A stretch of DNA of 32,000 nucleotides. It comes from an uncultured Chloroflexia bacterium (lineage in GTDB: Bacteria > Chloroflexota > Anaerolineae > Anaerolineales > Anaerolineaceae). The notes under the pieces were generated by a model that searched no databases, had not been told where the DNA came from, and worked only from the letters and a program-made list of their open reading frames with translations. Numbering within the stretch: position 1 is the first letter of the stretch; every line of letters starts with the position of its first letter. The position numbers were made by a program, and so were the translations under genes. Location: assembly GCA_963704755.1 (NCBI GenBank), contig OY969938.1:1770001-1802000 (forward strand). The letters run 5' to 3'. Positions 1 through 20,078 of the stretch are shown one piece after another.

Positions 1-69
1 GGTTGCTCACCTGAGGTTAGCGTCTATCCGCAAGTTTTTACGGGTAGGTTTTTATAATATCAGGTGGCT

Positions 70-97
70 GTTACAGGGCAGTTACAAAAGAGTTACA
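70..97 (-). repeat. Three hexamer direct repeats (GTTACA on +, TGTAAC on -) with exact 11-bp phasing; candidate SARP/BTAD-type activator site
   Basis: GTTACA occurs at 70-75, 81-86 and 92-97. On the - strand the last repeat is followed after 10 nt by TATTAT (59-54). The block starts 7 nt past the stop codon (105-107) of the BTAD regulator gene. Confidence 0.45.
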
Positions 98-104
98 AAT
101 AGGA

Positions 105-3100
105 TCAATTTACCAGAGTGAGCATTTGGTGCAGCCGCTGGATGCTCACAGAAGGTTCGATACCCAATTCGTCCTCTAAAATCGTTTTGAAATGCTGGTA
201 CGTAGCTTCGGCCTGGGGAAGGTTCCCTTGCGCGGTATGGACCTGCATCATTATTCCATAGGCCGGCTCACAAAACCTGTCACGGCGGAGGGCGCCGGTG
301 CATACGGCCAGAGCTTCATTCCATTGTTGGGCTTGAAGGTAGGCGCGGGCCAGGCGTTCGGCCAGGTTCAAATATTGCTGGCGATAATTGCCCCGTTCGA
401 TGGACGACCAGTCGCAATACAGGCAGTCCGGAAGGTAATCTTCCTCGTATAGATTGAGGGCTGCCTGCATTTTCTCCGGATTATCCAGAGCGGCCATCTG
501 CGAAAAAACTTCGCCATCCGTCACGATACTTGCCTGTGGATTGATCCCATAAGCATTGCCCTGGCGAATGATAAAGTAAGGTTTTAAATTTCGCGGGCGG
601 GTGGGTTCGATTGCGCGGTTTAGTGCATTCAAAGCCACTTTAAAATCGCTTAATGCACTTTCAGGGGTTGATTCAGGCCAGAGCATATCCATAATTTGCT
701 CGCGCAGCAGCCATTGACCGCGCGATGTAATCAGTAGCTGGAATAGCTGCCTGGCCTTTTCCCTCTGCCATTCGCGCGACGTGACCAGATCATCCCCCCG
801 CCAGAGATTGAAAGGCCCAAGGGTTCGCACCCATAACGTGTAGCCGGGATGGAACTCGAGGCCGGCTTTGCCTGCCCTGGAAAGCAGTTTGAGCACAAAT
901 TCACGCTGGATACCCTGGCGATAGGCTTCCATCAAAAGAGGAATCGCGGCCTGGTCATCTTTTAAACCCGCATGGGTAGGCTTGATCAGCAAGGAATCAT
1001 AGCCATTTTCAGCGACCACCCCTAACAGGGCGGAGAGGTGCTGGAGGGCGCTCTCGACCTGCCCGCTCCACCAGGCATTCAAGCTCAACCACAGCTTGGC
1101 CGCTGACCAGGCGTACGTATCCTGCACCTTCACCAATCCTTCGGCCGCCTCGTTCAACCAGCGAGCCGCAACCTGCGGGCGCTGGCTCATGGCGTAAGAG
1201 GCCCCCATGATGATCCGGACGTAGTGGCCAAACCATTCGTCGCCGGCGGAGGTGGCCAGTTCAATGGCATTGACGGCGTGCCCTTCCGCAACTTCCAGGT
1301 CACCCGCATATCCATAGGCTCTGCATAACCCCCACAGCGGTTCCAATCCTACGCGGGCGACCTTGAATGGGCGGATTTTGCCCATAACGCTTTCGTAACA
1401 ATCGATCGCTGCCTGGCGCTGGTCCCCGCCCCAGGGAGAAAAGCTGCCCAGTTGCAGGGCATGCCCCAGCCGCATAAAGCCAACCGCTTCGACATACGTG
1501 GATTGCATATTTTGCCCGATCGCGATCCCTTCGCGGGCATATCGTTCCGCATCCGCTTGATTGCCCTGCAATACACACACCAGGGATAAAAGCAGTTCCT
1601 TTTCGCGATGAAAATGAACCTCGCGGTTCTGGCCCAGGAGTTGTTCGTCCAGCTTGTAGCTCTCGAGCAGCCGTTGAGATTCGGCCAGTTTACCCGTACG
1701 CAAAAGAATGCGCGTTTCGAGGTAAATATCGGCCGATTTGGCCTCACCGTGCAGCCGCAGCGATTCGCGATGCAGCTCCTTGGCCTGGTCCGGCATGCCG
1801 GCATTGAGCTTATTCTCCGCCAGCATTTCCAGCAGGTCGGCAGTCTCTTGGGCATAAGCAGCCGGGTCAAGCAGGTCGAGCGCCTCGGCGAGTAATGGAA
1901 CCGCCTGCAGCGGGCGGACGGTATCCAGGTATACCTGCGCCTGTCCGCTGATCGCCTGGCTCTGGCCCAGGTTATTGGCTTCATCCTGGTACAGGCCAAG
2001 CGCCAATTGATAGTGCTGGAGGGCGGTTTCGAAGCGGGCCTTCTGGCGGCACACATCCCCGTAAAGCAGTTCCAGAAAAGGGCGGCTCGCGCGTAATTCG
2101 GCCGGGGTATGTTCCAGCCAATAGTTCAGGCTGTCCAGACGGCCGGCCAGCAGCAAGTTGCCGCCGATCTTTTCGATCAAGTCCGCCGCCTGCACGTAAT
2201 CGCCTGCCCCAAACAAATGATGAAGATTTTCTTCGGGTTGGTTAGCCCGGTCATAGTATTGGGCCGCCCGGCGATGCATGGCCTTTTTTTGCTGCGGGTC
2301 TTTACCGGCCAGGTTGAGCAAAAAATCATGGAACAAGCGCTGGTACCGGTAGGTTCGCTCCCCGACCAGGTCGACGAACAGGCCAATTTCGTGAAGGTAC
2401 TTTAATGTCTTTTGTGAATCTTGCGTCTCGAGCAGCGCGTCGCAAGAGGGACCATCCATCTGGCGCAATATGGATGTGGTGATCAAAAAGCGCTGAATAT
2501 CCGCGGTCTGCCGTGCCAGGACCTCGGGCGCCAGGTAGTCGAACAGGTGATCGAAAGTGGTTGGGGGCTTGAGGAGGGCCGTCTCCAGGCCTGGGATGAT
2601 CCCGGATTGAAGGCTTTGCCAGATCATCTGTAAGGCAATGGTCCACCCTTCAGTCTCCGCCGCCAGCAGTTCCGCCTGTTGAGTGGTGATGGGGTAATGA
2701 TACTTTTCGTTGAAAAGGACTTCGATCTCTTCCGCGGTGAAGGCCAGGTCGCTCACACCGATCGTATTCAACTTTCCTTTTACCCGCCAGCGGTTGATAT
2801 CCGGGAATTCGGGCATGTAACGGGTAGAAAGGACGATGTGAAGATGGGGTGGGCAATAATCGACCAGCTTTTTGGTCAATTCGATGATGTCGTTATTCTT
2901 CGAGACGAGGTGGTAATCGTCCAGAACCAGAATGGTTTCCGCGGAAATCGCGCCGGTCAGCGCATTGAGCAAGGGGATCAGCACGGCCGGGGTAACCTGG
3001 CCGCCGTTCGAACTCGAGCGCGTCGAGGGCTTTTTCGCCGTATTGGCCAAAGACCGAGAGCAGGTGAACCAGGAAAACCAACGGATCCCGGTCGGGGTCG

Positions 3101-3309
3101 GTGATGGTGTACCAATAGATTTGCTGCCCCGTCAGCGCCAGCGATGCCAGCGTGGTGCTTTTGCCATACCCGGTGGCGGCGTTGACGATGGTCAGCGGGT
3201 AATCCAGGATCGTGGATAGGAGAGATTCGAGACGCGGCCGATGTAAAAGGTCACTTCGCAGGCGCGGCGGATACAATTGGCTTTGGATAACTAAATCCTG
3301 TAGACTCAT
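105..3309 (-). pseudogene. STAND-type transcriptional regulator (MalT-like P-loop ATPase, TPR-like repeats, C-terminal wHTH plus BTAD), interrupted by an apparent frameshift
   Basis: ORF 2893..3309 carries Walker A (NAATGYGKSTT). ORF 105..3050 continues with Walker B (ILVLDDYH), a long helical-repeat region, a C-terminal OmpR/SARP-like wHTH (LWVRTLGPF...WQREKARQLF) and a BTAD-like tail (YEEDYLPD...AYGIMMQVHTAQGN...DELGIEPS). The two frames overlap at 2893-3050, and the shift is probably near 2990-3015. Confidence 0.8.
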
Positions 3310-3513
3310 CGGGGGGTCATTCGTAAAAGAACAGTGGACACAGCGTCGGGCTCATGCAATGCCAGCAGATGATTTTAATTTTACTGTGTTTCGAAAAATT
3401 AAGAGCCGGGCCGCCGCCCAATTTCAGCGGCCTGTGTGCTGAAAAGGACGCATTTCGTCGATTCCTTCCCGGCCAAGCCGGAGGGGGTTTCGGAAGATCA
3501 AGGGGAAGAGGGG

Positions 3514-3563
3514 CTGAAACGAAAAAAAGCTGCTCCATCCGGAGCAGCTTTTTTTCGTTTCAG
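3514..3563. terminator. Bidirectional intrinsic terminator
   Basis: Perfect 23-bp inverted repeat (ctgaaacgaaaaaaagctgctcc / ggagcagctttttttcgtttcag) with the 4-nt loop atcc. The GC-rich core gctgctcc/ggagcagc is flanked by A7 on the left and T7 on the right. It sits between the higA 3' end and the regulator promoter region. Confidence 0.7.
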
Positions 3564-3591
3564 AAGTGGCTGGCCAATCCAACCAAAAAAC

Positions 3592-3894
3592 TTATCCAAC
3601 CTGTTCTAGTGGGCGAACTTCCCGGCTCAAGCGAGGACCCAGGGCATCTTCGGCAACGTCCAGATCGTATTGGCCTTGCAGTCCCAACCAGAATTGGGGC
3701 GAATTGCCAAAGAAGCGGCCCAGGCGCAGAGCGGTATCCGCGCTGATGCTGCGTTTGCCCAACACGATTTCGTTGATACGGCGCGCATTCACGCCGATGT
3801 GGATCGCCAGGCGATTCTAGCTCAGCTTCAGCGGCTTGAGGAATTCTTCCAATAACACTTCCCCAGGGTGGATCGGGGCAAGTTTATCCGTCAT
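3592..3894 (-). pseudogene. higA: HigA/VapI-type XRE-HTH antitoxin with an in-frame TAG
   Basis: Translation from ATG 3894 gives MTDKLAPIHPGEVLLEEFLKPLKLS*NRLAIHIGVNARRINEIVLGKRSISADTALRLGRFFGNSPQFWLGLQ... The stop is TAG at 3817-3819. From memory of the family (..GISQNRLA..) a Gln is expected at that position, so this would be a single CAG to TAG change. Confidence 0.8.
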
Positions 3895-3908
3895 GGTTTT
3901 GCAGCTTT

Positions 3909-4004
3909 CTAGTGGATCATTCTCAATTTCCGGGGCAGCTTGCACGATGGTTGGCATCGATAAATCTTCTCGGTCTCGGCATCATTGAAGGTCTTGATCA
4001 CCAT
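3909..4004 (-). pseudogene. higB: Truncated HigB/RelE-type toxin remnant (31 codons)
   Basis: Translation from ATG 4004 gives MVIKTFNDAETEKIYRCQPSCKLPRKLRMIH*. This resembles only the N-terminal third of HigB-like killer proteins (..IKSF.d.etEKif....klP..). It lies 14 nt upstream of higA in the usual higB-higA order. TTGACG and TATATA boxes sit just upstream. Confidence 0.5.
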
Positions 4005-4176
4005 ACTAGTATATAACGCATCACGCTAAACGTCAAACGATAAGATTTTTTAGCTCGAATGCATCTTCCTCTCCACCACCCGCTAAGAGAACGAAGTTGA
4101 GGCGACTATCAAAGCCGTCTTGCGGAGGTTTCGGTTGGTTAATGGGAAGATAAGGTAAAAAGTTGAAATATAAAGA

Positions 4177-4213
4177 GCTGCTCAGGATAACTATTTTGAG
4201 CAGCCCTTTTTAT
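4177..4213. terminator. Hairpin with T-rich tail at the left edge of the island
   Basis: 8-bp stem gctgctca (4177-4184) / tgagcagc (4197-4204), 12-nt loop, followed by cctttttatttc. Confidence 0.4.
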
Positions 4214-4337
4214 TTCAACTTTAATTTATGGATCCAATCACTAAACAGAGAGAGCATAGATTTGTCAAAAATTATTTGATAAGGAGACGTGGAACCTTGC
4301 AAATTGAAGTAAGTGACAATGTTCAAGCCAAGGCAAA

Positions 4338-4478
4338 AAAATCCTTTAAAGCAGTATCGCGTTTCATTTATCTCTAAAAAAATTTTTTTTCTTCGAAGGA
4401 AGGAAACGCTACGCCAAGCAATAATCTTTTTCAATACATTGGGTTGGGTCTTAGTATCAAAATCCGTTAAAGCAGTAT
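4338..4478 (+). repeat. Pair of 20-bp direct repeats (19/20 identical) 121 bp apart, upstream of the island operon
   Basis: aaaatcctttaaagcagtat at 4338-4357 and aaaatccgttaaagcagtat at 4459-4478. The flanking sequences are unrelated. Confidence 0.8.
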
Positions 4479-4631
4479 ATAATAATTAATAATATAACCA
4501 GTTATAGATTAGTGGGATATTTACTGGTAAGGCGATTCCAACCAATAAATTCTGTTTTAGTTAAATGCTTTTTTAATATAAGAGCATTCTAAAGGTCGGC
4601 TTTTTTCATATCAGCAAGGAAGGTAAAGTAA

Positions 4632-5347
4632 ATGAAAAATGTAAAACAATCAATACATATGACACGTCTTGAATGCTTAACCTCAGAAATGGTGAAAGAG
4701 TTTTTTCAGCAGATATCAAACTTAAAATATTCTGAAGCAACAGGATTCGGATTTGATAAAGTTGTTTTCGATGGAGACTTTTTGTCAGCATCTCTTTAAA
4801 GAGAACGCCTACATTTATTACTCAATATGACGCTGAGAATGGGCAGCTTATTCAACAACAGTTTTATGTTTTTACTGAGATAAATTGGGAAATTGATGTT
4901 GAAAATGGAATTCTTCAAGTGTTTGGGCCAGTAAGGAATACTCGAAAGCTGCTATCTCTAATTACGGCATATCTAAATCCAAAAATCCAGATAAGTAATT
5001 TAGAACTTAATCCAAGTATTTTGATTCCAATTTTGGTTGATAAATCTCTATTGATCGAAATCCAAAAGCTTACAGTGAATCTATTCGAATATAAAAAGGG
5101 GATTATTGGCCGCTATGAAATGAAAGTTTTGCAACCCGAACTGGCTAGGGAAATCATTGATCAATATTCAGAGGAAATATCGAAAGCTAAAATTCTTGTG
5201 AATTTTCCTGAGATCGGGTTAATATCGATGGCGTTTACAGCAGAAGGGCACATTGAAATATCCTGTACCGAAGATGACATAAACGTAATACTTTCTATTA
5301 TCAAAACAATAGTATTAAATCCTACAACAGGAGATCAAAATGCCTGA
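4632..5347 (+). pseudogene. Island ORF1, hypothetical protein of about 238 aa, interrupted by an apparent 1-nt frameshift near 4794-4798
   Basis: SD AAGGAAGG (4616-4623) precedes ATG 4632. Frame 0 reads MKNVKQSIHMTRLECLTSEMVKEFFQQISNLKYSEATGFGFDKVVFDGDFLSASL and stops at TAA 4797-4799. The -1 frame is already open from 4760 and runs stop-free to TGA 5345-5347 (..KRTPTFITQYDAENGQLIQQQFYVFTEINWEIDVENGILQVFGPVRN..). That frame has no ATG, GTG or TTG before 4919. Confidence 0.6.
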
Positions 5348-6272
5348 AGATCAAGGTGTAAACGGTGATCGTTGGACAAATGAAGCGTCAAGATTTTTAG
5401 TAAGATTAAATTGGGAAAAAGTTGCTGATAGTAACATAGATATCCCAGGAGTTGATGGACGTGAGCATGGGATCGATGCTATGTTTACATACAAGCTGTT
5501 GCCTAACGATGAGAGCGAAGGGGTTTTTCTAGAGGCAAAAAACTATAGCAAAGATTCTTTCAAAATAGGTATGCTTCAGGATTGGGTGAATGTTATAAAC
5601 CAAAAAATTTTGGATATTAAAAGATCTGAAGAATTCTATAAAAAATATCCTGCATTTATTAATGGTGTTAAAGTTAGGAATGGTTTATTAGCAATATGGA
5701 TAAACGACTTGGATAACGACAAAGCTTTCAGAGAAAAATTTACAAAAGCGCTCGTTTCAATTAGTGTACCGCGTGGCCGTCTGGGACGTATAAACCGGCT
5801 ATTTATACTCACTAATGATAACATTTTGCGACTTTGTTCTTTAATCGATACAATAGGAAAGCTGAAATCTACTGATCAGTCACAAGATAACGAATATTAT
5901 TTTTGGTACCCAGCCACCAATAGAACATCGGCTATCTATTCGAATGTGCTGAATCTTGAATATATGTACTCAAAGTTTGTCTTTGTGAAAGTAGGCTCAA
6001 AAGGGCTTCGGCCCAGTGATAGAAATGTTGTTTGCTATTTCGGCGCTAGAGATGTCCAAAGTTATTCGAAATTACGAGATGCAATGCTCTTATATCAGTT
6101 TGTTAGCAATAACAACCAATTAACAATATATAGTTATCAAGATGATAAAGATTTTAGAAAAATAAAACCCGATGTTGAAAAACTTTTCACAGACATCGGA
6201 AGCCAAAAAGTCGATTTTTGTGAAATGAATGCCTTTTCTCGATTACCTGGGTGGATTAAAGATGAGCATTGA
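5340..6272 (+). CDS. Island ORF2: N-terminal Mrr-like PD-(D/E)xK nuclease domain plus unknown C-terminal domain (310 aa)
   Basis: A strong SD AGGAG (5329-5333) precedes the ATG, which overlaps the ORF1 stop (ATGCCTGA). The motif is E15 ... HGID46AMF ... 18 aa ... VFLE65AK67NY. The later segments GLLAIWINDLDNDKAF and RLFILTNDNILRLCSLI resemble the distal part of Mrr_cat-type domains. No Walker motif is present. Confidence 0.75.
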   Translation: MPEDQGVNGDRWTNEASRFLVRLNWEKVADSNIDIPGVDGREHGIDAMFTYKLLPNDESEGVFLEAKNYSKDSFKIGMLQDWVNVINQKILDIKRSEEFYKKYPAFINGVKVRNGLLAIWINDLDNDKAFREKFTKALVSISVPRGRLGRINRLFILTNDNILRLCSLIDTIGKLKSTDQSQDNEYYFWYPATNRTSAIYSNVLNLEYMYSKFVFVKVGSKGLRPSDRNVVCYFGARDVQSYSKLRDAMLLYQFVSNNNQLTIYSYQDDKDFRKIKPDVEKLFTDIGSQKVDFCEMNAFSRLPGWIKDEH

Positions 6273-7023
6273 TAAAGAAACTACCGAACATATCAATTAT
6301 CCCAACCGATATGAATTAAATCTGTCTTTGGCAGAATTTTGTTCCAGAGATTTTGTGGATCATTTTGCCCAAGGAAAAGGTATTTTCATTGCTAATGCTA
6401 CAACGAAAGAAATTAGTGCCTTTTTATCGAATATATTTTATGAATATGGTGATATAGAAGACATACATTCGGCTGCCCTTCATATTTCCGAAAACAGAAG
6501 TCTTTCAGGTTTCTGGGCTGAAGAAATCGAAAAAGGCATAGGATTAGTAAACGAATTGGAGGCTTCTGTAGGGAATATCGTAGATGAAAGATCGCAAATG
6601 AGATTGGGAGCGATTATTGAAAAGAAGGGATTAGGAGAACAAATTTATTGTAGCCATGTAGGCTATACTCAAAAACAACCTGGACGAGTTGAGTTTTTAA
6701 GTGAAATTCCAAGGGAGTTTGAGTTTTATATTAAACAACTAGATGAGAATAAGTGGGAAATCCTTGTAGACGGAAACCGAGCACAAGATACTCAAACTTT
6801 GGCAGATTGGTTTGAAGGCAAAGCAAGAAAGAATTATCGATTAGTAACAATTGATCAAGCTCTATTTAGTAAAGAAATACAAACAATTCAATTTTTTGAT
6901 GAGTTATCAAAGTCCGGAATGCAAGACGACTGGAGATTTTCACAAGTTAGACGAATTACTTTAAGGAAACCGCCAAAGAATGCAGATGACGAAGAGGAGA
7001 TCGAAGAGGCAACTCAGACTTAG
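6262..7023 (+). CDS. Island ORF3, hypothetical protein (253 aa from ATG 6262; alternative ATG at 6229)
   Basis: ATG 6262 is preceded by GGTGGA and overlaps the ORF2 stop by 11 nt. It has an acidic C-terminal tail (NADDEEEIEEATQT) and ends at TAG 7021-7023. I see no recognisable motif. Confidence 0.65.
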   Translation: MSIDKETTEHINYPNRYELNLSLAEFCSRDFVDHFAQGKGIFIANATTKEISAFLSNIFYEYGDIEDIHSAALHISENRSLSGFWAEEIEKGIGLVNELEASVGNIVDERSQMRLGAIIEKKGLGEQIYCSHVGYTQKQPGRVEFLSEIPREFEFYIKQLDENKWEILVDGNRAQDTQTLADWFEGKARKNYRLVTIDQALFSKEIQTIQFFDELSKSGMQDDWRFSQVRRITLRKPPKNADDEEEIEEATQT

Positions 7024-7353
7024 TTGTCCGGTATCAGCCAGGCTATATTAGAGGGCAGCGACTTACGCAGGAACCCTTTTGTAAAGTCTTGCGAAGAAGG
7101 CGGTTATCGCTTTACAGCCATGACCTATGAGTACGAGAATATAAAAGAGCCTTATTTGATTTTATTACGTGCAGAATTTAAAGGAAAACCAAAATTATTT
7201 GAGATAGCACTTGAGAAAACTTACAAAAAAGAAGGAATAAACGCGAAACCTGTAGATTATCATATGCCTAAAGAACAAGAAATAAAAATATTGTCATATT
7301 TCTACACTCAAGCAAGAAAGGTGTTCGACAAAATTGCAGTTGGCCTCCCATGA
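7024..7353 (+). CDS. Island ORF4, hypothetical (109 codons), in the same frame as ORF3 and separated from it only by TAG
   Basis: The frame continues directly after TAG 7021-7023 (LSGISQAILEGSDLRRNPFVK...). The only start adjacent to the stop is TTG 7024, with a poorly spaced SD. The first ATG is 31 codons in. Confidence 0.5.
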   Translation: MSGISQAILEGSDLRRNPFVKSCEEGGYRFTAMTYEYENIKEPYLILLRAEFKGKPKLFEIALEKTYKKEGINAKPVDYHMPKEQEIKILSYFYTQARKVFDKIAVGLP

Positions 7354-8002
7354 CGTTACCTAAAATAGACTACATACCAGAAACATTATTAATGACCACC
7401 TGAATTTCAAACATATGAGGTTCGATATTCTCTTGGGTTTAACTGAGTTCTGCCTCTCAGCACATATTTTGTGCTATCGTTCGGGCCGGTCTCCAGACCG
7501 AGCCCGCTCTTCAACGCCGGCAAAGAACCCGGCTTTGAAAGCCGGGCTATCCAGTATCAACTCATGTAAGACTGACAAACGCCTCGAATTATGGAACTTT
7601 GTGTCAGGAACCCGAGTAGTTACGAATTCATCTCAAAAAGATACCCTACCTGACCCATGACACCTGACACCAGTTTTCCACCACTCCCCCACCCCACCGA
7701 CCAGTCGGGCCGCACAAATTGTTTACCCGGCTGGTGTATAATTTAAATTAACGAGATCGTAATCGTTTGAATAATTTTAGCCGGGTTTGGATTCTTTCAT
7801 GAGGTCCCAACAGCGATGGCACGGATAGAAACCTTTCCACCTGCCTCCAGCAACTGCCTTTCAATCGACATAAAGATGCATCGCTTCTCTATGACTTTGT
7901 ACTTCTCCGGGCCGGGGCAATAAATTCCTCAATTTCAAGGACTTCTATCGCGCCCGAGCGCCGATTGGCCCGCCCTTTCAGGACTGATTACAGGATGTCA
8001 AT

Positions 8003-9682
8003 ATGCTCGGCAAGGAAAATTTTCGATTGGATATAGAAGCCATGCTCCAACGCTATCCTTCGATCCAACAGGCTTTGCAAAATATCGATCAGGTGATCTG
8101 GATTCAGGATACAAGTGGCAATCTCCTGTATGTCAGCCCGGCTTTTGAGACAGTATGGAACCGCAGCCGTGAAAGTCTGTACGCCGACCCGTTAACCCTG
8201 ATTAAAAGCGTTCACCCGGAGGACCGGGTGAAAGTGATGTCCTCCAGCCCCGACCTCAACCGTAAATCCCTGGACCAGTCCTACCGGATACTACGGCCGG
8301 ATGGCAGCCTGCGCTATATCTCGGCCCATCTATTTCTGATCTGCGAAGAACCCCCGGCCGGTTCATACCAGGTCTGCATTGCCCAGGATGTCACCGATCA
8401 AAGCCTGGTCGACCAGACTTTGCGCAAGGCGCTGGATCGATCCCGCGAGCAATTTACCCTCAGCCGGCGCATGAGCCTGGCGCGGAAACCGGAAGCCGTG
8501 CTCAAAACATTGATGTCGGCCTCGGAGCTGCGGACGGCAAAACGCGCCTTTGTGCTGTTTTTTGAATCGCCGCCGGGTGGGCTTTCCCGGGACGTCGAGG
8601 TGATTACTTCCTGGCCCGCGGTTTCCTACCCGGCCGGTCCCAATACGAGCGAATCGCTTAACGAAGCCGGCCTGTTCGAAGACCTTTCATCACTGGATCT
8701 TTTCCACCCCTTAAAACCGGTGATTGTTTCGGAAATCTCCAGGGATCAGCGCCTGACACCCGCGGTACGGGACCTGCTGTTACAGGCCCAATTCCAAACC
8801 ATGGCCATCTTCCCGCTGGTCGCCCTGGGCAATTGGCTGGGGTGCCTTTTGGTGTTTTTCACCAAAGAGACCCATTTCGATCCGATTGAACTGCGCCATA
8901 TCAAGGTGTTGGTCGATCAAGCCACCATTACCTTATATAACCTCCAATTACTGGAAATCGAAGCGGAATCTCGCCACGAGGCCGAGCAGGCCAACGAGAT
9001 TAAGACCCGTTTCCTGGCCATGATTTCGCACGAGCTGCGCACACCATTGACGTCGATCAAAGGATTTACCACCACTCTTCTGGCAGACGACGTCACCTGG
9101 GAGCCGGAGGAGCAGCGCGACTTTATCCAGACCATCGAACAAGAGGCCAACCGGCTCCAGGAACTCATCGATCACTTGCTGGATCTTTCCCGGTTGGAAG
9201 CGGGGATGCTGCCGATCGAGTTAGAACCTCACGCCCTGGAAGAGATCATCGAGGATGCGCTGCCTCAATTTAAGGTCATGACCCAATCGCACACATTTTC
9301 CATCCGCATCCCAGCCAATCTCCCGCCCGTTTTTGCGGATGCAAAGCGGATCGCCCAGGTTCTGGTGAACCTGGTTCATAACGCGGCCATTTACACCCCG
9401 GCCGGAACGGAAATCATTCTCACTGCCCGGGCACGAAGGGAGTTTGTACAGGTGAGTGTCGTCGATTTAGGCCCCGGCATACCCCCTGCCGAACGTAAAC
9501 GCGTTTTTCAAGCCTTTCGCAGAGGCATTCACGAAGAGGATGGCGCCGGTAAAGGCGCGGGGTTGGGCCTGGCAATCTGTAAAGGGCTGGTAGAAGCCCA
9601 TGGCGGCCACATCTGGATCAAAAGACAAACTACTCCAGGAACGACCATTTCTTTTACCCTGCCGCTCGTTCCTTTAAAATAA
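8003..9682 (+). CDS. Sensor histidine kinase (PAS, GAF-like, HisKA, HATPase_c)
   Basis: H-box FLAMISHELRTPLTSIKG, N-box VLVNLVHNAAIYTP, G-boxes VVDLGPGIP and GAGLGLAICKGLVEAHGG. The N-terminal region is PAS-like (IWIQDTSGNLLYVSPAFETVW). Confidence 0.9.
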   Translation: MLGKENFRLDIEAMLQRYPSIQQALQNIDQVIWIQDTSGNLLYVSPAFETVWNRSRESLYADPLTLIKSVHPEDRVKVMSSSPDLNRKSLDQSYRILRPDGSLRYISAHLFLICEEPPAGSYQVCIAQDVTDQSLVDQTLRKALDRSREQFTLSRRMSLARKPEAVLKTLMSASELRTAKRAFVLFFESPPGGLSRDVEVITSWPAVSYPAGPNTSESLNEAGLFEDLSSLDLFHPLKPVIVSEISRDQRLTPAVRDLLLQAQFQTMAIFPLVALGNWLGCLLVFFTKETHFDPIELRHIKVLVDQATITLYNLQLLEIEAESRHEAEQANEIKTRFLAMISHELRTPLTSIKGFTTTLLADDVTWEPEEQRDFIQTIEQEANRLQELIDHLLDLSRLEAGMLPIELEPHALEEIIEDALPQFKVMTQSHTFSIRIPANLPPVFADAKRIAQVLVNLVHNAAIYTPAGTEIILTARARREFVQVSVVDLGPGIPPAERKRVFQAFRRGIHEEDGAGKGAGLGLAICKGLVEAHGGHIWIKRQTTPGTTISFTLPLVPLK

Positions 9683-9814: not shown

Positions 9815-10486
9815 ATGGGAAATATTTTAATCGTCGAAGACGACCCAAATATACGCAAGCTGGTGCGGGTCAACCTGGTCAAACGCGGCTATACCGTCAG
9901 TGAGGCAGAAGACAGCCATCAGGCAATGGCTCACTTCCAGGCCGAACCGTTCGACCTGGTGCTGCTCGACCTGGTGCTTCCGGGCTTATCCGGGGTGGAT
10001 ATCTGTGCCTGGATGCGGGCCCGGTCGGAAGTCCCTATTATCGTGTTGAGCGCCCGCTCGGAAGAGGATTTAAAAGTTGCTGCACTGGACGCAGGCGCCG
10101 ACGACTACGTCACTAAACCATTCGGGCAGGAAGAACTACTGGCGCGAGTGCGTGCCTTTCTGCGCCGTTCCTATACAGCGCCCCAAACCCCCGATTCGAT
10201 TATCCAAATAGGCGACCTGCGAATTGATTTAGAAGAGCGCCGTGTGTTCATTAATGAAGAGGATCTGCATCTCACCCGCACCGAATATGCTATCCTGGCC
10301 GAGCTGGCCCAACACCCAGACGCAATTGTCACCCACGACGAATTGATTACCCAGGTTTGGGGCCTTGAGTACCGTGGATCGAACCATTATTTGCACAATT
10401 ACCTGGGCCGGCTGCGCAAAAAGTTGGGGGCCTACAGCGACCGGATCGAAACCGTGCCGGGCATGGGATATATTCTTCATACTTAA
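9815..10486 (+). CDS. OmpR/KdpE-family response regulator (REC plus winged-helix)
   Basis: ILIVEDD, phospho-acceptor context DLVLLDLVLPG, TKPF. The C-terminal trans_reg_C-like part reads LTRTEYAILAELA...HYLHNYLGRLRKKL...VPGMGY. Confidence 0.9.
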   Translation: MGNILIVEDDPNIRKLVRVNLVKRGYTVSEAEDSHQAMAHFQAEPFDLVLLDLVLPGLSGVDICAWMRARSEVPIIVLSARSEEDLKVAALDAGADDYVTKPFGQEELLARVRAFLRRSYTAPQTPDSIIQIGDLRIDLEERRVFINEEDLHLTRTEYAILAELAQHPDAIVTHDELITQVWGLEYRGSNHYLHNYLGRLRKKLGAYSDRIETVPGMGYILHT

Positions 10487-10681
10487 CTCCCCAGGCTCAG
10501 GTAATCGAGTCTCTACACCCTTCAGGTTAAGCAACGGCCTTCCTGTAAAGATAGATCACCTCTCGAGCCGGCTCAAATTAATAGAAATTTAATAGGTTAA
10601 TTCAAGGACTTAAGGAGACCTTTTCGGTTAAGCTAAGTCGTATTACAAGTATTCCCCTTTGATTGAAAGTATAGGAAAAAA

Positions 10682-10969
10682 ATGGAAACAAAACTTTACG
10701 TAGGAAATATGTCTTTCGAGACAACCGAGCAAGAATTGCGCACGATGTTTACTGAAGCTGGTACCGTATCCTCAGTCGATATGATCACGGATCGCCAAAC
10801 CGGCCAGTCGAAGGGTTTTGCCTTCGTTACCATGAGCAACCAGGCCGAGGCCGAGAAAGCCATCAGCATGTTCGACACAAAAGAATTGAACGCGCGGGCT
10901 CTTAAAGTCAACGTAGCGAAGCCAAGAGAAGAACGCGCCCCCATGGGCGGTCGCCGCGACAGGCATTAA
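10682..10969 (+). CDS. RRM-type RNA-binding protein
   Basis: RNP-2 KLYVGNM and RNP-1 KGFAFVTM, with a basic Arg/Gly C-terminal tail. Confidence 0.9.
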   Translation: METKLYVGNMSFETTEQELRTMFTEAGTVSSVDMITDRQTGQSKGFAFVTMSNQAEAEKAISMFDTKELNARALKVNVAKPREERAPMGGRRDRH

Positions 10970-11011
10970 TCTCTTCAGACTGCACAGAATGTTCGTCTGA
11001 GTTGAATTTTT

Positions 11012-11049
11012 CGTATCGAGCCTGTAGTTAGAGGCTCGATACGTTTTTT
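11012..11049 (+). terminator. Intrinsic terminator of the RRM gene
   Basis: Perfect 12-bp stem cgtatcgagcct / aggctcgatacg, 8-nt loop, then T6 (11044-11049). Confidence 0.8.
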
Positions 11050-11281
11050 AGGAATTTTATAGATTGTCGCAAGGACGTAGATAGACCCCGTCAGGTATGA
11101 TGGAAATTACGAAGGTAGGATTGATTTCTGATGACAAAAAAGACCATTACAACCAAAAAATTTAACGAAATCGCAGCGCACCCATGTACGGAGATTGAAA
11201 CAGGAAGCTCGCAAAGAAGACAAAGTTTATAAGCCTGGTCTCCTGTAAACATTTCTTCATCGAACGAAGGAGCTGAATTTT

Positions 11282-11809
11282 ATGCCACGGACTACTTTCT
11301 ATATCAATGAAAAAGTACAGGTTACTTTCCAGCCTAACATTGGCCTGGATGCTTCCGATCGCCAGTCCGTAGTGGAAATTCTCAATATTATTCTGGCCGA
11401 TGAATCCGTGTTATTGTCCAAAACCCATCGCGCAGAAGAGCATCCGGCTGAAACCGTTCTGCCTGACTTATTAGCCCTTTTCAAGGCTCAATGTGATCCA
11501 ATCCATCACATTATCCTCGAGGTTGTGGAACGAATAAACATATTAGGTGGTTCACCCATTCACAATCAAGATGAATTAATCGACACGGCTCGATTATACG
11601 GAAGCGCCGAAGTCATTCCCGGCGCCACGGCAATATTAGCCGACCACGAAGCCTTCATCCGCTATTTGCGTGAAGATGCCCAGAAATGTGCTGAACTGTA
11701 TGAAGATCAGGGCAGCTTTGCACAGCTTGTCAGCGTCATGCGGCAGCACGAAAAAATGGCCTGGACGCTGCGTCCTTTTATCGAGCCGGGCCTGCCTGGC
11801 GACAGTTAA
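11282..11809 (+). CDS. dps: Dps/ferritin-like DNA-protection protein
   Basis: ILNIILADESVLLSKTHRAEEH, VVERINILGGSPI and ILADHEAFIRYLRE...QHEKMAWTLRPFIE follow the Dps helix pattern as I remember it. SD GAAGGAG lies upstream. Confidence 0.7.
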   Translation: MPRTTFYINEKVQVTFQPNIGLDASDRQSVVEILNIILADESVLLSKTHRAEEHPAETVLPDLLALFKAQCDPIHHIILEVVERINILGGSPIHNQDELIDTARLYGSAEVIPGATAILADHEAFIRYLREDAQKCAELYEDQGSFAQLVSVMRQHEKMAWTLRPFIEPGLPGDS

Positions 11810-11881
11810 CTGCTGGCTCAGGAAAAAGCTCAGCATTGGTTTTGAGGTTTGGCTATATGGGCAATAATTTGTGCAAAGGAT

Positions 11882-12121
11882 ATGATGAACGAATTACAGA
11901 TGACCAAGATTTTGGAACAGTTTAGCCGCAAGAGCGAACCGGTGAATGGGCAAGTTAAAGTCACACGCGTTCCGGATTACAAGACGGTCTACATCGAACA
12001 AATGGGGGGAATTGGGCGTGCGGTTATGCTGAGCGAGTTCAAAGTGGATGGAAAAACGTATTGGGCAGGGTACAGCGAACGCAGCGATACCGTTTTCGTG
12101 AGCCAGGCCAGCCCGGACTAG
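11882..12121 (+). CDS. Small hypothetical protein (about 79 aa)
   Basis: Open frame with ATG 11882/11885 after AAAGGA. There are no recognisable motifs. It ends in TAG and is followed by a hairpin. Confidence 0.4.
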   Translation: MMNELQMTKILEQFSRKSEPVNGQVKVTRVPDYKTVYIEQMGGIGRAVMLSEFKVDGKTYWAGYSERSDTVFVSQASPD

Positions 12122-12497: not shown

Positions 12498-12531
12498 CGC
12501 GAAGGCAGCAAAAAACGCTGCCTTCGCGATG
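12495..12531. repeat. 15-bp perfect inverted repeat at the truncation point of the flavoprotein fragment
   Basis: catcgcgaaggcagc (12495-12509), loop aaaaaac, gctgccttcgcgatg (12517-12531). Confidence 0.8.
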
Positions 12532-12865
12532 GCAATGTTCCTGTTTTTTTGTCAAGTGAACACAAGAAGGCCATTCTGGTCTGAGTCTTTCCCCTTCCGC
12601 TGCCTGGAGTATTTTCCCCAGGGTGTGGAAAAAGCGGGACGTGTTTCTCTTGGGGAGGACGTCGGCGGGGAACCGGCCGGAAAGCGGCCGGCCACGGAAT
12701 ATTCCCGCTGGAGCGCTCGATTATTCCATATTGCTATTCGGCCAGGTTAATTCTCCGCCAGGAGAAAATTTATAGATATTTAATAGGTCGTATCCGGGAC
12801 ATAGATAGGTCTTTTCGATTACCATGCTATTGTAGAAAAATTCTGCCCCCAGCAGATTTTACAGG

Positions 12866-13108
12866 ATGCATCGTCATCAAACCCTCAGAAAGGCCTATTG
12901 GATGCCAAGAAAATATAATTTCGAGAATCAATCCGAGGGTAAGGCCAAACGCGAACGGTTACTTGCCATGCTTAAGGTCCGGTATGGTTACACCAACGAG
13001 AAGGCGGTGGACGAATTGCAAAGGCTTCTAAGGCAGTTCTACATCACCAACAAGTCACTGGGTACCCACCACGCGAAGCCCGCTCTCGGAAATCCTGGTC
13101 CCAAATAG
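12866..13108 (+). CDS. Small hypothetical protein (80 aa; alternative start at 12902)
   Basis: Open frame only, with no motif recognised. It ends in TAG. Confidence 0.35.
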   Translation: MHRHQTLRKAYWMPRKYNFENQSEGKAKRERLLAMLKVRYGYTNEKAVDELQRLLRQFYITNKSLGTHHAKPALGNPGPK

Positions 13109-13230
13109 TCGGGGCACAGGAATGGATTAAACTTTAAGGGGACTGCCCTATCCAGCCTGGACCTTTTTCAATAAGCTGAGTAGATCCAATTTTATTCGCC
13201 TGTTCGTGTAAGTTTTCAAGGAGTAAAATC

Positions 13231-13689
13231 ATGAAAAGAGAAGTGGGTTTATGGATTGATCGCAACAAAACGGTGATGGTCACCATCCAAGAAGAAACGG
13301 AAGCGATTCTAGAAGTAAAATCGAACATCGAGAAGCGCCTTCAATCCTCAAGTGGCAAGAATGCTAAAACCCCCAACACATCCGAAGGCTCAACGGCAGA
13401 AGATATGATGGACCGGCGATTTGGGAACCACCTTGGCAAATACTATGAAGGAGTTATCTCCCTTATCCGTGAAGCCGATTCTATTTGGATATTTGGCCCT
13501 GGCGAGGCAAAAATCGAACTTGAAAATTGCCTGAAGCGCGATAACCTTGGAGACCGTATCGTAGGTGTGGATACTGTCGACCGGATGACCGATCATCAAA
13601 TTGCTGCTAAGGTCAGAGATCGGTTTCAAAATAAGTTGCCATCTGCCCTGCCACAAACAATTGATCAAGGGAGAGGCTCCAAAAGATAG
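13231..13689 (+). CDS. Hypothetical protein, possibly of the host-attachment / bacterial eRF1-like family
   Basis: A strong SD AAGGAG lies 8 nt upstream. The pattern [13 protein letters not shown] ... [38 protein letters not shown]...[23 protein letters not shown] resembles that family from memory. This is not verified. Confidence 0.6.
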
Positions 13690-13708
13690 CCTCGAACAAG
13701 GAGATCAA

Positions 13709-14192
13709 ATGGAACAGAAGAAAATACCCATCGAACGCAACAAGAAAATAGCCCTGGTCGCGCACGATAACAAAAAGCCCGACCTGGTCGAGTGGGCCAA
13801 ATTCAATCGTGACCTGCTTGCCCACCATACTGTTTACGCCACCGGCACCACCGGAGCGTTATTAGAGCGCGAGCTCGGTTTCCCCATTCAAAAGCTCGAG
13901 AGCGGACCGCTCGGTGGAGATCAACAAATCGGGGCCAAAATCGTGGTAGGTGACATCGACTTTTTGATTTTCTTCTGGGATCCGCTCGAGTTCGATGTCC
14001 CATGACCCGGACGTAAAAGCACTTCTACGAATGGCCGTGGTGTGGAACATTCCGATCGCCTGTAACCGGGCAACCGCCGATTTCATGATCTCCTCGCCGC
14101 TGATGGATGAGGAATACGATCGCCTACTGCCCGAATATGATGATTTCAGGAATCGCAAAGCGATTCAAAAAATTTCGAATTCTCCCACGTAA
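13709..14192 (+). pseudogene. mgsA: Methylglyoxal synthase, split by a 1-nt frameshift at the CCC run 13999-14001
   Basis: [17 protein letters not shown]...[11 protein letters not shown]...[27 protein letters not shown] runs to the stop at 14003-14005. The next frame continues with [29 protein letters not shown]. coli MgsA has [20 protein letters not shown]. Adding one C restores DVPHDPDVK. Confidence 0.85.
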
Positions 14193-17951: not shown

Positions 17952-18692
17952 TTATCCTCGTTGCATCAACAGTCTGAAATTAATCACGTCCCGATTGAAA
18001 TAATTCATCGAAAATGCAATTGGCCTGGTCTGGGTGACATCCAAAAAGGTCTCCATCATCAGTAAGGCCGGCGTCCCGGAGGGGCAGCCAAATGTCTGGG
18101 CAACCTCTCCAATCGCTTCCACGGAAGAAATATCGACCAATACATACTCCACGTGCATGCCCGAAACGCGATCCAGAAAGCGCATGAAGCCTTCCCCCTC
18201 AATCGACAGGTCGTATTGGCCAACCATGTTGGACGGCAAATAATCTTTGGTGAACATGGCCGGCCGCTCATCGGCGTAAAAGATCATGGTATGGCAAATC
18301 GCGTTCGCATCCGCCGGGAGCTTGAGTGCATTACGAGCCGCTTCCGGTGCTGCCACCTCGGTGGCGGAAACATATTTTGCGCTGGGGCTGAACCCAGCCC
18401 ACTTGAGCAAATCCCGATTTTCATAGAAGGTATCCAGCATATAGTTGAAGCGGTTGGACAGCTTGGATACGTAAGTCCCATGCCCGAGTTCCCGCACGAT
18501 CAGGCCCTCTTTGGCCAATTGATCGAAAGCCTGCCGTACTGTGTTGCGGCTCAATTCATATTTCTGCATCAAGGCTCGTTCGGAAGGCAGGATTTCGCCC
18601 GCCTTTAATTCACCGATCCGAATCTGCTCCCGCAAGAGCTGGGCCAGTTGATAATACATTGGAATTAGCGAGCGCCGGTCAATAGCGGCCAT
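17952..18692 (-). CDS. GntR-family transcriptional regulator with UTRA-type effector domain
   Basis: From ATG 18692 (SD GAAGGTGA) the protein reads MAAIDRRSLIPMYYQLAQLLREQI..GELKAGEILPSERALMQKYELSRNTVRQAFDQLAKEGLI. The stop is 6 nt before the coxM-like start. Confidence 0.85.
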   Translation of the reverse strand: MAAIDRRSLIPMYYQLAQLLREQIRIGELKAGEILPSERALMQKYELSRNTVRQAFDQLAKEGLIVRELGHGTYVSKLSNRFNYMLDTFYENRDLLKWAGFSPSAKYVSATEVAAPEAARNALKLPADANAICHTMIFYADERPAMFTKDYLPSNMVGQYDLSIEGEGFMRFLDRVSGMHVEYVLVDISSVEAIGEVAQTFGCPSGTPALLMMETFLDVTQTRPIAFSMNYFNRDVINFRLLMQRG

Positions 18693-18955
18693 TTTAATCA
18701 CCTTCACAAAGTGGTTGGTACATCCCATCCACTTTCTATTTTAGCGATTCTTGGGGTGATTTCAAGTCTGATTTTTGGCGAATACGGGCCGGCCCTGGCG
18801 CTTCGCTATTCTTAACAATTGAATAAACGGAACTTCTCAGGCTCCTGTAAAAAAGTCCCCGGATTTGAGGTGTTCGCGGGGGTCTAACCGCTGCGAACAC
18901 CTCAAATTCGAGTTTCATCCCGGTAGTCCGAGCAGTCACGCACAAAAACTGATTA

Positions 18956-18985
18956 TTGAACTCTTAAAATTATATTTGCTATAAT
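18956..18985 (+). promoter_or_regulatory. Sigma-70-like promoter of the LacI-family gene
   Basis: TTGAAC (18956-18961), an 18-nt spacer, then TATAAT (18980-18985). Confidence 0.55.
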
Positions 18986-19021
18986 GTTATCGTTCCCGTT
19001 ATCGATAACGGGAACGATAAC
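18986..19021. promoter_or_regulatory. 36-bp perfect palindrome, probable LacI-family operator
   Basis: gttatcgttcccgttatc|gataacgggaacgataac starts immediately after the -10 box and ends 10 nt before ATG 19032. The centre ttatCGataa has the central-CG signature of LacI/GalR operators. Confidence 0.6.
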
Positions 19022-19031
19022 GGGGAGGAAA

Positions 19032-20078
19032 ATGTCTCAACGGGTGATGAGAGCGACAATTAAGGAAGTTGCATCTGTGGCGGGTGTGTCCACACAGACT
19101 GTATCAAGGGTTATTAATGAGAGACCCGACGTTTCCTCAGAAACTCGAAAACGGGTTCAAGAAGTTATCAATGATTTAGGCTACCAACCCAGCGCTCTGG
19201 CACGCAGTTTAATCCAGCAACGCAGCTATACGCTTGGCGTGGCTACGGCCGGATTGCGCTATATTGGACCTTCGAGAACATTAAGTGGTATTGCATCGGC
19301 GGCGGAAGAAGCGGGCTATTCTGTCCTGCTCAAAGAACTTCCGGGGTTTCATGCCAATAATATTGCGCCGATCATTCAAGCGTTTATCTCTCGTCATGTC
19401 GACGGCATTATCTGGGCAGTTCCTGAAATTGGGGATAATCACGACTGGATCGCCAGTCAATCACTGAACCTGGATATTCCGCTTGTCTATATCACCATGG
19501 AACCGCGCCAGGGCAGTTCGGTAGTTTGCATAGACAATTACTTAGGCGGGCGGATGGCCGTATCCCACCTTCTCGAACAGGGATACAAACACATCGCCCA
19601 CCTTTCGGGACCAATGGACTGGTGGGAAGCGCGCCAGCGTAAAGCCGCGTGGGAAGATGCGCTGACCGATCACGGGCTGGAGGTAAGCGACGCCTATTGG
19701 GCAGAAGGGAACTGGTCATCCTCGAGCGGCGTTCCGGCCTTCGAGCAAATCCTTGAGCAATACCCGCAGATGGATTCGATTTTCGTCGGCAACGACCAAA
19801 TGGCGCTCGGTGTGATCCAGGTAGCCCACCAGCGAGGACTGCGAATTCCGGAAGATATCGGGGTAGTCGGTTTTGACAACATTCCCAAATCCCCTTTTTT
19901 CTCCCCTCCGCTGACCACTATACAGCAGGATCAACACAACCAGGCAAAATTGACCGTAGAAGAAGTTATCAGAATAATTAAATCGGGCTGGAGGGGACAG
20001 GAACCTGACGAACCACGCACCATCGTACTTCCACCCAATCTTGTCGTTCGTCAAAGCACACTGCTAAAAAAGGGGTAG
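19032..20078 (+). CDS. LacI-family transcriptional regulator
   Basis: SD GGGGAGGA precedes the start. The HTH is ATIKEVASVAGVSTQTVSRVIN and is followed by a periplasmic-binding-protein-like sugar-binding core. The gene ends in TAG. Confidence 0.9.
   Translation: MSQRVMRATIKEVASVAGVSTQTVSRVINERPDVSSETRKRVQEVINDLGYQPSALARSLIQQRSYTLGVATAGLRYIGPSRTLSGIASAAEEAGYSVLLKELPGFHANNIAPIIQAFISRHVDGIIWAVPEIGDNHDWIASQSLNLDIPLVYITMEPRQGSSVVCIDNYLGGRMAVSHLLEQGYKHIAHLSGPMDWWEARQRKAAWEDALTDHGLEVSDAYWAEGNWSSSSGVPAFEQILEQYPQMDSIFVGNDQMALGVIQVAHQRGLRIPEDIGVVGFDNIPKSPFFSPPLTTIQQDQHNQAKLTVEEVIRIIKSGWRGQEPDEPRTIVLPPNLVVRQSTLLKKG

Follow-up and report, generated by a model that had tools for sequence, protein, structure and literature searches.

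A probable decayed three-gene relative of the GAPS4 anti-phage system, with a predicted RdgC-like component, in an Anaerolineaceae genome

GAPS4 is a two-gene anti-phage system that was found in Vibrio GMT islands (bioRxiv 10.1101/2023.03.28.534373) and is known from Vibrio parahaemolyticus MAVP-R and E. coli RiKo 2299/09 (Mahata et al.; 10.1101/2023.03.28.534373, 10.1101/2025.09.07.674715). The nuclease of the pair, GAPS4a, has an N-terminal, divergent PD-(D/E)xK domain whose motif is HGxD-SxK, and the Asp of this motif is essential; two copies each of GAPS4a and GAPS4b assemble into a 2:2 complex, where the GAPS4b subunits are arranged as a ring, and the complex breaks down the DNA of phage and host alike on sensing DNA breaks, which makes the response abortive (10.1101/2025.09.07.674715). 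In canonical GAPS4 the a and b genes stand in tandem or are fused, and neither protects without its partner. Here we describe a compact operon in the window, i.e., the whole stretch of 32,000 nucleotides (nt) that was analysed (contig OY969938.1, positions 1,770,001 to 1,802,000, of an uncultured Chloroflexia bacterium). The original prediction, made from the letters of this DNA alone, had proposed at this place an undescribed defence operon of four genes around an Mrr-like nuclease. In our opinion, the locus is better described as a horizontally acquired, decayed copy of a three-gene relative of GAPS4; we give this reading, mode of action included, a probability of roughly 0.7. The three genes and the lesions in them are listed in Table 1.

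Sequence comparison allows gene 2, open reading frame (ORF) 2, to be identified with confidence as a homologue of GAPS4a. A search with ORF2 yielded 67 listed matches (66 besides ORF2 itself), which are 33-52% identical to it; PF26115 (PDDEXK_GAPS4) is on record for 59 of these 67, and the record is unmarked for most of the relatives. The profile of the ORF2 family was compared by hhalign with a canonical GAPS4a profile of eight sequences, which were taken from the supplements of 10.1101/2025.09.07.674715 and include the experimentally tested MAVP-R protein. The two profiles align with Prob 96.9 and an E-value of 1.4e-10 over 270 of 310 columns, i.e., over essentially the full length, at an identity of about 19%. 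Direct BLASTP of ORF2 against the Vibrio GAPS4a gives a weak match to the N terminus only (E 3e-4). The active site has the same HGxD...xK layout as that of GAPS4a and reads H43-G44-I45-D46 ... E65-A66-K67 in ORF2. Across 41 aligned relatives, G44, D46, E65 and K67 do not vary, and ORF2 retains all 23 invariant columns of this alignment. In the profile alignment D46 corresponds to the essential D59 and K67 to K81 of GAPS4a from MAVP-R, while E65 takes the place of the canonical Ser; the branch to which the window copy belongs thus has a classical ExK active site where canonical GAPS4a has SxK. ORF2 residues 29-103 also match, weakly, positions 290-360 of the 391-position NCBIfam profile for the LIC_12708 family (E 0.0024), which may reflect a PD-(D/E)xK core shared with this Leptospira protein family.

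The two reading frames downstream of the nuclease, ORF3 and ORF4, are one gene (gene 3), since the 72 relatives found with the joined query are each a single uninterrupted protein (350-373 amino acids (aa), 95-98% query coverage) and since AlphaFold 2 (AF2) predicts one confident, compact fold for the fusion (pLDDT 88.3, pTM 0.84). Gene 3 occupies the position of GAPS4b and has about its size: it encodes some 360 aa, compared with 379 in GAPS4b, and lies immediately downstream of the nuclease with an overlapping junction. NF047934 (antiphage_GapS4b) is the sole NCBIfam family that its relatives match (16 of 44, best E 5.3e-8). By hhalign, the gene 3 family is collinear with five canonical GAPS4b sequences at an E-value of 1.1e-4, while cross-family controls gave E-values of 0.16-0.37 over 13-40 columns. 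Use of ten canonical sequences did not improve the score (E 7e-4 to 2e-3), and the profile gave no significant match to a single GAPS4b sequence. PF26110 is on record for 3 of the 73 listed matches; in the one looked up, it is a faint GAPS4b_N match. The three profile methods, which are independent of one another, all lead to GAPS4b and to no other family, and gene 3 is, on these comparisons, a remote GAPS4b homologue. The top Foldseek matches of the monomer model are to Iml3/CENP-L, with low TM scores, a likeness that would fit the ring predicted for GAPS4b by the GAPS4 authors.

Gene 1 (ORF1) has no counterpart in canonical GAPS4. With one T restored at 4795-4797 it encodes 238 aa that align end to end with intact relatives; the repaired protein matches the upstream genes of related loci over its full length (phmmer E 1e-9 to 1e-88), and a family profile made without the window sequence matches it at E 2.4e-73. 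A word-index homologue search with ORF1 returned two relatives only, and it took an exhaustive profile search of 1.84 billion proteins to collect 222 representatives, the best 150 of which are all stand-alone proteins of at most 245 aa. No match to the family was obtained in the Pfam, NCBIfam, PADLOC and PDB-sequence scans that were run: 17 members gave single chance-level matches only in PADLOC and Pfam, the RdgC family is absent from their Pfam matches at E<=0.1, and a profile search of PDB sequences did not find RdgC.

It is the predicted structure that relates gene 1 to a known fold. The AF2 model (pLDDT 95.8, pTM 0.89) has its best Foldseek match in E. coli RdgC (2owl_A; E 5.7e-8, prob 1.00, TMq 0.59), followed by CENP-L/Iml3, lambda RexA and TBP; in BFVD, a viral library, it matches several phage proteins named RdgC as well as proteins named 'exonuclease'. 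We therefore predict an RdgC-type fold for the gene 1 product. RdgC, RexA, Iml3 and Chl4 share one fold and bind DNA non-specifically as ring- or horseshoe-shaped dimers (PMC11077077). The model shows the tandem alpha/beta domains of the RdgC/Iml3/TBP-like type that are seen in RdgC (PDB 2owl, 2owy), and these domains suggest a dimer that would encircle or cradle DNA without sequence specificity. Thus, the product of gene 1, which is about 230 aa long in intact relatives, is predicted to be a DNA-binding dimer of ring or horseshoe shape. It differs from RdgC in being approximately 65 residues shorter (238 vs about 300 aa) and in its genetic setting: gene 1 always belongs to a nuclease operon, whereas rdgC is a stand-alone housekeeping gene. 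Lambda RexA (PDB 8twq) is a component of an abortive-infection system (PMC11077077) and, as a DNA-binding dimer of the RdgC fold, provides a precedent for this fold in phage exclusion. However, RexA is the weaker structural match (E 4.4e-4, TMq 0.29), and its partner is the membrane protein RexB, whereas the partners of gene 1 are a soluble DNase pair. Apart from RexAB, which we note as the exception, no RdgC-fold protein tied to nuclease-based defence was found in the literature. An origin of ORF1 by gene duplication was also considered and is unsupported, as hhalign comparison of the ORF1 family with the GAPS4a-like, GAPS4b-like and canonical families shows no similarity.

The arrangement of the three genes is itself conserved. 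In each of the related loci that were fetched, a gene for 226-248 aa closely abuts the nuclease start or runs into it (the junctions extend from overlaps of 8 nt, as in the window and frequent among these loci, to gaps of at most 5 nt), and a gene for 352-381 aa lies 3' of the nuclease. A hidden Markov model of the ORF1 family, run against six-frame translations, detected gene 1 in all 17 branch loci and in none of the ten canonical two-gene GAPS4 loci scanned, one of which lacks upstream sequence. Where canonical loci were viewed closely, the nuclease is preceded, at a distance of 180-260 nt, by a gene for P2-type tail-fibre assembly, for an IS110 transposase or for a recombinase. Even two distant members of the ORF1 family (E about 1e-9 and 1e-14) stand directly upstream of PF26115 genes. 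The gene order and the short overlaps, found again at 17 further loci in two phyla, put the three-gene arrangement far beyond chance. The hosts are Anaerolineae within the Chloroflexota and, within the Bacteroidota, Saprospiraceae, Chitinophagaceae, Pedobacter, Mucilaginibacter, Draconibacterium, Bacteroidales and Apibacter; this host range also sets the branch apart from canonical GAPS4. Metagenome contigs and one complete genome are among the sources.

The branch loci, like GAPS4, lie in defence islands and among mobile elements. Their neighbours include a type I restriction R subunit, AbiU, AbiGi, AbiJ, PtuA (Septu), a CBASS-like SAVED-HNH gene and PADLOC candidate families, together with phage-type integrases, a resolvase and TraG. 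Some of these mobile-element genes could also be read in favour of a module outside immunity, i.e., one for DNA repair, recombination or mobile-element maintenance that combines an RdgC-like modulator of recombination, a structure-specific nuclease and an accessory factor. The model of gene 1 does, after all, come closest to a recombination-associated protein, phage RdgC-like and 'exonuclease' proteins are among its matches, and one branch locus lies among housekeeping genes. We nevertheless regard such a module as improbable. Experiments have demonstrated phage protection by the system to which the nuclease and its downstream partner show homology, the neighbourhood is rich in known defence genes, and a patchy distribution over two phyla, a foreign base composition and a pseudogenised copy fit accessory defence genes. 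A GAPS4-type defence operon remains, in our opinion, the preferred interpretation.

Two further observations concern the surroundings of such loci. Beside the three-gene locus of CP185385.1, positions 1-1909 hold a large helicase gene (with ResIII, ERCC3_RAD25_C, Intein_splicing and LAGLIDADG_3 on record) and an SNase-domain gene. Canonical two-gene GAPS4 was seen at 3288-6071 of IMG/VR prophage contigs, where the translations on either side presumably belong to the tail-fibre assembly gene and the tail-sheath gene of a P2-like prophage. In P2-like phages, the place between these genes is known as a hotspot of defence cargo.

How far the locus is new depends on the component considered. When the five ORF pieces were scanned with Pfam, PADLOC and NCBIfam, nothing above chance level came up, which could be taken to mean that the operon is a wholly new system, an Mrr-like type IV restriction nuclease with three novel partners and no named relative. 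We consider this highly improbable, the least probable of the alternatives discussed here. The scans of the pieces were falsely negative because the genes are broken (gene 3 is split exactly across the region that matches GapS4b), and the local copy of Pfam is silent also for a relative whose PF26115 record is unmarked. The records and the profile comparisons place genes 2 and 3 in the GAPS4a and GAPS4b families, and the label 'Mrr-like' is not supported: type IV restriction Mrr joins an Mrr_cat nuclease domain to an N-terminal winged-helix DNA-binding domain, and no Pfam family, Mrr_cat included, matches ORF2 at E<=1. PADLOC likewise gave single chance-level matches only for 41 members of the ORF2 family, and profile searches of PDB sequences returned nothing meaningful for any of the three families.

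The original prediction thus fares differently in its parts. Novelty can no longer be claimed for the nuclease or for the product of ORF3+4; it apparently holds for the ORF1 family. The number of genes falls from four to three, and the repair of ORF1 and the fusion of ORF3 with ORF4, which had been thought necessary, agree with the intact relatives. A defence-type operon around a PD-(D/E)xK nuclease is supported by the GAPS4a homology and by the neighbourhoods of the relatives, and the co-occurrence of homologues in the same order near known defence genes, proposed there as a check, is seen for three genes. No helicase, ATPase, methyltransferase, TIR or HEPN domain was detectable in the Pfam, PADLOC and NCBIfam scans, as had been stated. 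Shedu and Hachiman, defence nucleases of the PD-(D/E)xK type that DNA ends or aberrant DNA activate, resemble the branch in their logic, an effector of this type being controlled by the sensing of DNA ends or damage, and the GAPS4 authors themselves draw this parallel; yet PADLOC scans showed no homology to either, and the branch lacks the helicase partner of Hachiman and the DUF4263 architecture of Shedu.

The GAPS4 core is already known; the three-gene architecture and the RdgC-like family are apparently undescribed. The published accounts of GAPS4 that the search returned present a two-gene or fused system, and neither a three-gene variant nor the RdgC-like family was found in them. Pedobacter nyackensis and Mucilaginibacter sp. 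L294, both of which carry the branch, do not appear in the part of the published alphabetical homologue table where their alphabetical neighbours stand.

In intact relatives the operon would encode an RdgC/RexA-like protein of about 230 aa, a GAPS4a-type DNase with the active-site residues D46/E65/K67, and a GAPS4b-type scaffold of about 360 aa. From homology, synteny and predicted folds, which were obtained directly, we infer the formation of a complex, its trigger and the role of gene 1. If canonical GAPS4 is a guide, the DNase may be held restrained on a ring of the GAPS4b-like protein in a 2:2 complex; DNA breaks or ends arising during infection would release it as a non-selective DNase, and the cell would die, so that the expected action is, as in GAPS4, abortive infection by a DNase freed through the sensing of DNA breaks. 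The RdgC-like protein could be a branch-specific subunit that engages DNA and either senses DNA ends or tunes the threshold of autoimmunity. Homing endonucleases attenuate GAPS4, and the authors propose that they mask breaks (10.1101/2025.09.07.674715); the idea of a brake is based on this attenuation by DNA-binding proteins. We find the role of a sensor or adaptor somewhat more likely than that of a brake on autoimmunity. A stronger proposal is that the gene 1 family is the obligatory third subunit of a distinct, three-component class of GAPS4-type systems in which a DNA-encircling ring performs or gates the sensing of ends. We put this forward tentatively, at a little under even odds. The gene 1 protein might, for instance, pair with the GAPS4b-like protein as Iml3 does with Chl4.

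The copy in this genome, however, has only its nuclease gene in an intact reading frame. ORF1 is open in frame 0 from 4632 to 4799, where it ends at an early TAA, and continues in frame 2 to 5347. Across this lesion, intact relatives have LSATLLKRTPTF unbroken, and at the frameshift point they read LSA(T/S)LLKRTPTF without interruption. Programmed -1 frameshifting at CTTTAAAG was considered and rejected: the register is wrong for a slippery heptamer of the X_XXY_YYZ type, and the relatives are unshifted. In gene 3, which is composed of ORF3 (6262-7023) and ORF4 (7024-7353) in one frame, the separating TAG takes the last position of a variable acidic linker; the LSGIxQAILEG motif, which is nearly invariant, follows at once. 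Over 5227-7507 the window agrees letter for letter with an independent assembly (Logan, ERR11571143), TAG included; the contig of that assembly does not reach the frameshift site. The two lesions are direct observations; loss of function we infer from them. The window operon is most likely an inactivated relic, a further difference from GAPS4, and its intact nuclease gene is probably inert by itself because, by analogy, neither canonical GAPS4 gene protects without its partner. Two lesions combined with the retention of invariant residues are read most simply as a sign that a costly system was inactivated recently.

Several results weigh against the interpretation of the locus as a decayed three-gene relative of GAPS4, either against its identity or against its decay. 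On the side of identity, the PF26115 record of ORF2 itself is marked weak, and the branch falls short of the curated and published thresholds for GAPS4 membership, that of the GMT paper being RPS-BLAST E<=1e-15 at 70% coverage (10.1101/2023.03.28.534373). The GAPS4b homology of gene 3 is remote: its relatives score far below the 300-bit cut-off of NF047934 (one displayed score is 26.2 bits), the fused window ORF3+4 does not match this model at E<=0.01, and pairwise BLASTP of ORF3+4 with GAPS4b shows no similarity. The role of gene 1 is derived from a predicted fold with a moderate TM score (0.59) and no sequence similarity to RdgC, and what is said of the trigger and of the abortive outcome is carried over from proteins with an identity of about 19%.

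On the side of decay, the frameshift is a one-base change in a short homopolymer context (a T3A3 run) of what is apparently a single-contig assembly, lies beyond the independent contig, and could be a sequencing error. Moreover, all family-invariant residues are still present in the three genes, so that either the decay is recent or a split at the linker is tolerated. These points, together with a possible TTG start right after a TAG that closes a variable linker, would favour a still functional operon, in which the frameshift is an assembly error and GAPS4b is tolerated in two parts, ORF4 being re-initiated at the TTG. We consider this unlikely. None of the 72 relatives is split at the point of the TAG, and the TTG is the codon of a conserved Leu; the second assembly confirms the TAG; AF2 places both halves in one compact fold; two independent lesions in a 2.7-kb operon are the usual signature of decay; and GAPS4 is costly through autoimmunity (10.1101/2025.09.07.674715). 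We thus retain the interpretation of the window copy as a decayed one.

Table 1. Features of the window discussed in the text, in order of position
Feature	Positions	Strand	Remarks
BTAD/TPR transcriptional activator, 981 aa	105-3050	-	
Leader, AT-rich, non-coding	4100..4631	+	GC 31-34%
Gene 1 (ORF1), frameshifted pseudogene	4632..5347	+	Repaired product is full-length relative to the upstream genes of related loci
Frameshift site of gene 1	4793..4800	+	One base missing from run TCTTTAAA; early TAA at 4797-4799
Gene 2 (ORF2), intact, 310 aa, assigned as a divergent GAPS4a PD-(D/E)xK DNase	5340..6272	+	PF26115, hhalign
Gene 3 (ORF3 + ORF4), 363 codons, remote GAPS4b homologue with in-frame TAG	6262..7353	+	Profiles
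In-frame TAG splitting gene 3	7021..7023	+	Also in the independent assembly
PAS-GAF histidine kinase and OmpR-type response regulator	8003-9682, 9815-10486	+	

The genes of the operon are tightly coupled, and the junctions and ribosome-binding sites noted in the original prediction are all present. The stop of ORF1 and the start of ORF2 overlap in ATGCCTGA (5340-5347), and the TGA of ORF2 (6270-6272) is overlapped by the reading frame that starts with the ATG at 6262. Shine-Dalgarno-like purine runs precede all three starts: AAGGAAGG stands 5' of the ATG at 4632, AGGAG 5' of that at 5340, and GGTGGA 5' of that at 6262. The operon and its leader form an islet at about 4100-7400 with a GC content of 31-40%, compared with 52-60% in both flanks. 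The islet is, as had been predicted, AT-rich and foreign, and the operon is most likely a horizontally acquired copy. Its borders show no tRNA gene, Rfam family or flanking direct or att-like repeats that would mark an integration site. The promoter of the operon presumably lies within the leader, where the frequency of promoter-like sites does not exceed that in shuffled sequence; promoter and terminator scans stayed at background. The leader also contains a terminator-like 31-nt inverted repeat at 4159-4222 (87% complementary) and, 5' of ORF1, a 20-nt direct repeat AAAATCC(T/G)TTAAAGCAGTAT at 4338-4357 and 4459-4478 (spacing 121 nt). These repeats may be regulatory sites or mark the edge of acquired DNA.

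The islet is inserted between regulatory genes, with a decayed HigBA module on one side and the histidine kinase and response regulator on the other. HigB and HigA remnants occupy 3592-4010 of the minus strand. HigA is in two frames; its joined fragments (about 3592-3957, minus strand) match TIGR02607 at E 1.8e-24, so that the decayed toxin-antitoxin module of the original prediction is real, although it is located in DNA of host-like GC outside the AT-rich stretch. The HigB-like stub (31 aa, 3909-4004) was recognised by eye and has no family match. Between the region of the BTAD regulator and the HigA remnant, a perfect 23-nt inverted repeat with a 4-nt loop and flanking A/T runs (3514-3563) looks like a bidirectional terminator. 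Other dips in GC (44-48% vs 52-62%), at about 10500-12000, 12500-14000 and 18500-19500, may be further acquired segments.

For this genome, the islet would be a recently inactivated defence relic beside a decayed HigBA module; since the window copy looks inactivated, it is not a working system to clone as it stands, and the interest of the locus is in the family it belongs to. Current models miss the branch: the NCBIfam cut-off is not reached, PADLOC 2.0 gives no match, and present annotation gives a branch locus in Bacteroidota or Chloroflexota as three hypothetical proteins. Few defence systems have been proposed as sentinels of DNA integrity, and GAPS4 is among them. A branch with an RdgC-like DNA-ring protein may offer a handle on how GAPS4 recognises DNA breaks and on which subunit touches DNA ends. 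It also raises the question of whether an extra subunit lifts the threshold of activation and limits the cost of GAPS4 autoimmunity. If a three-component class does exist, the trigger of this branch or the control of its autoimmunity could differ from that of the two-gene system.

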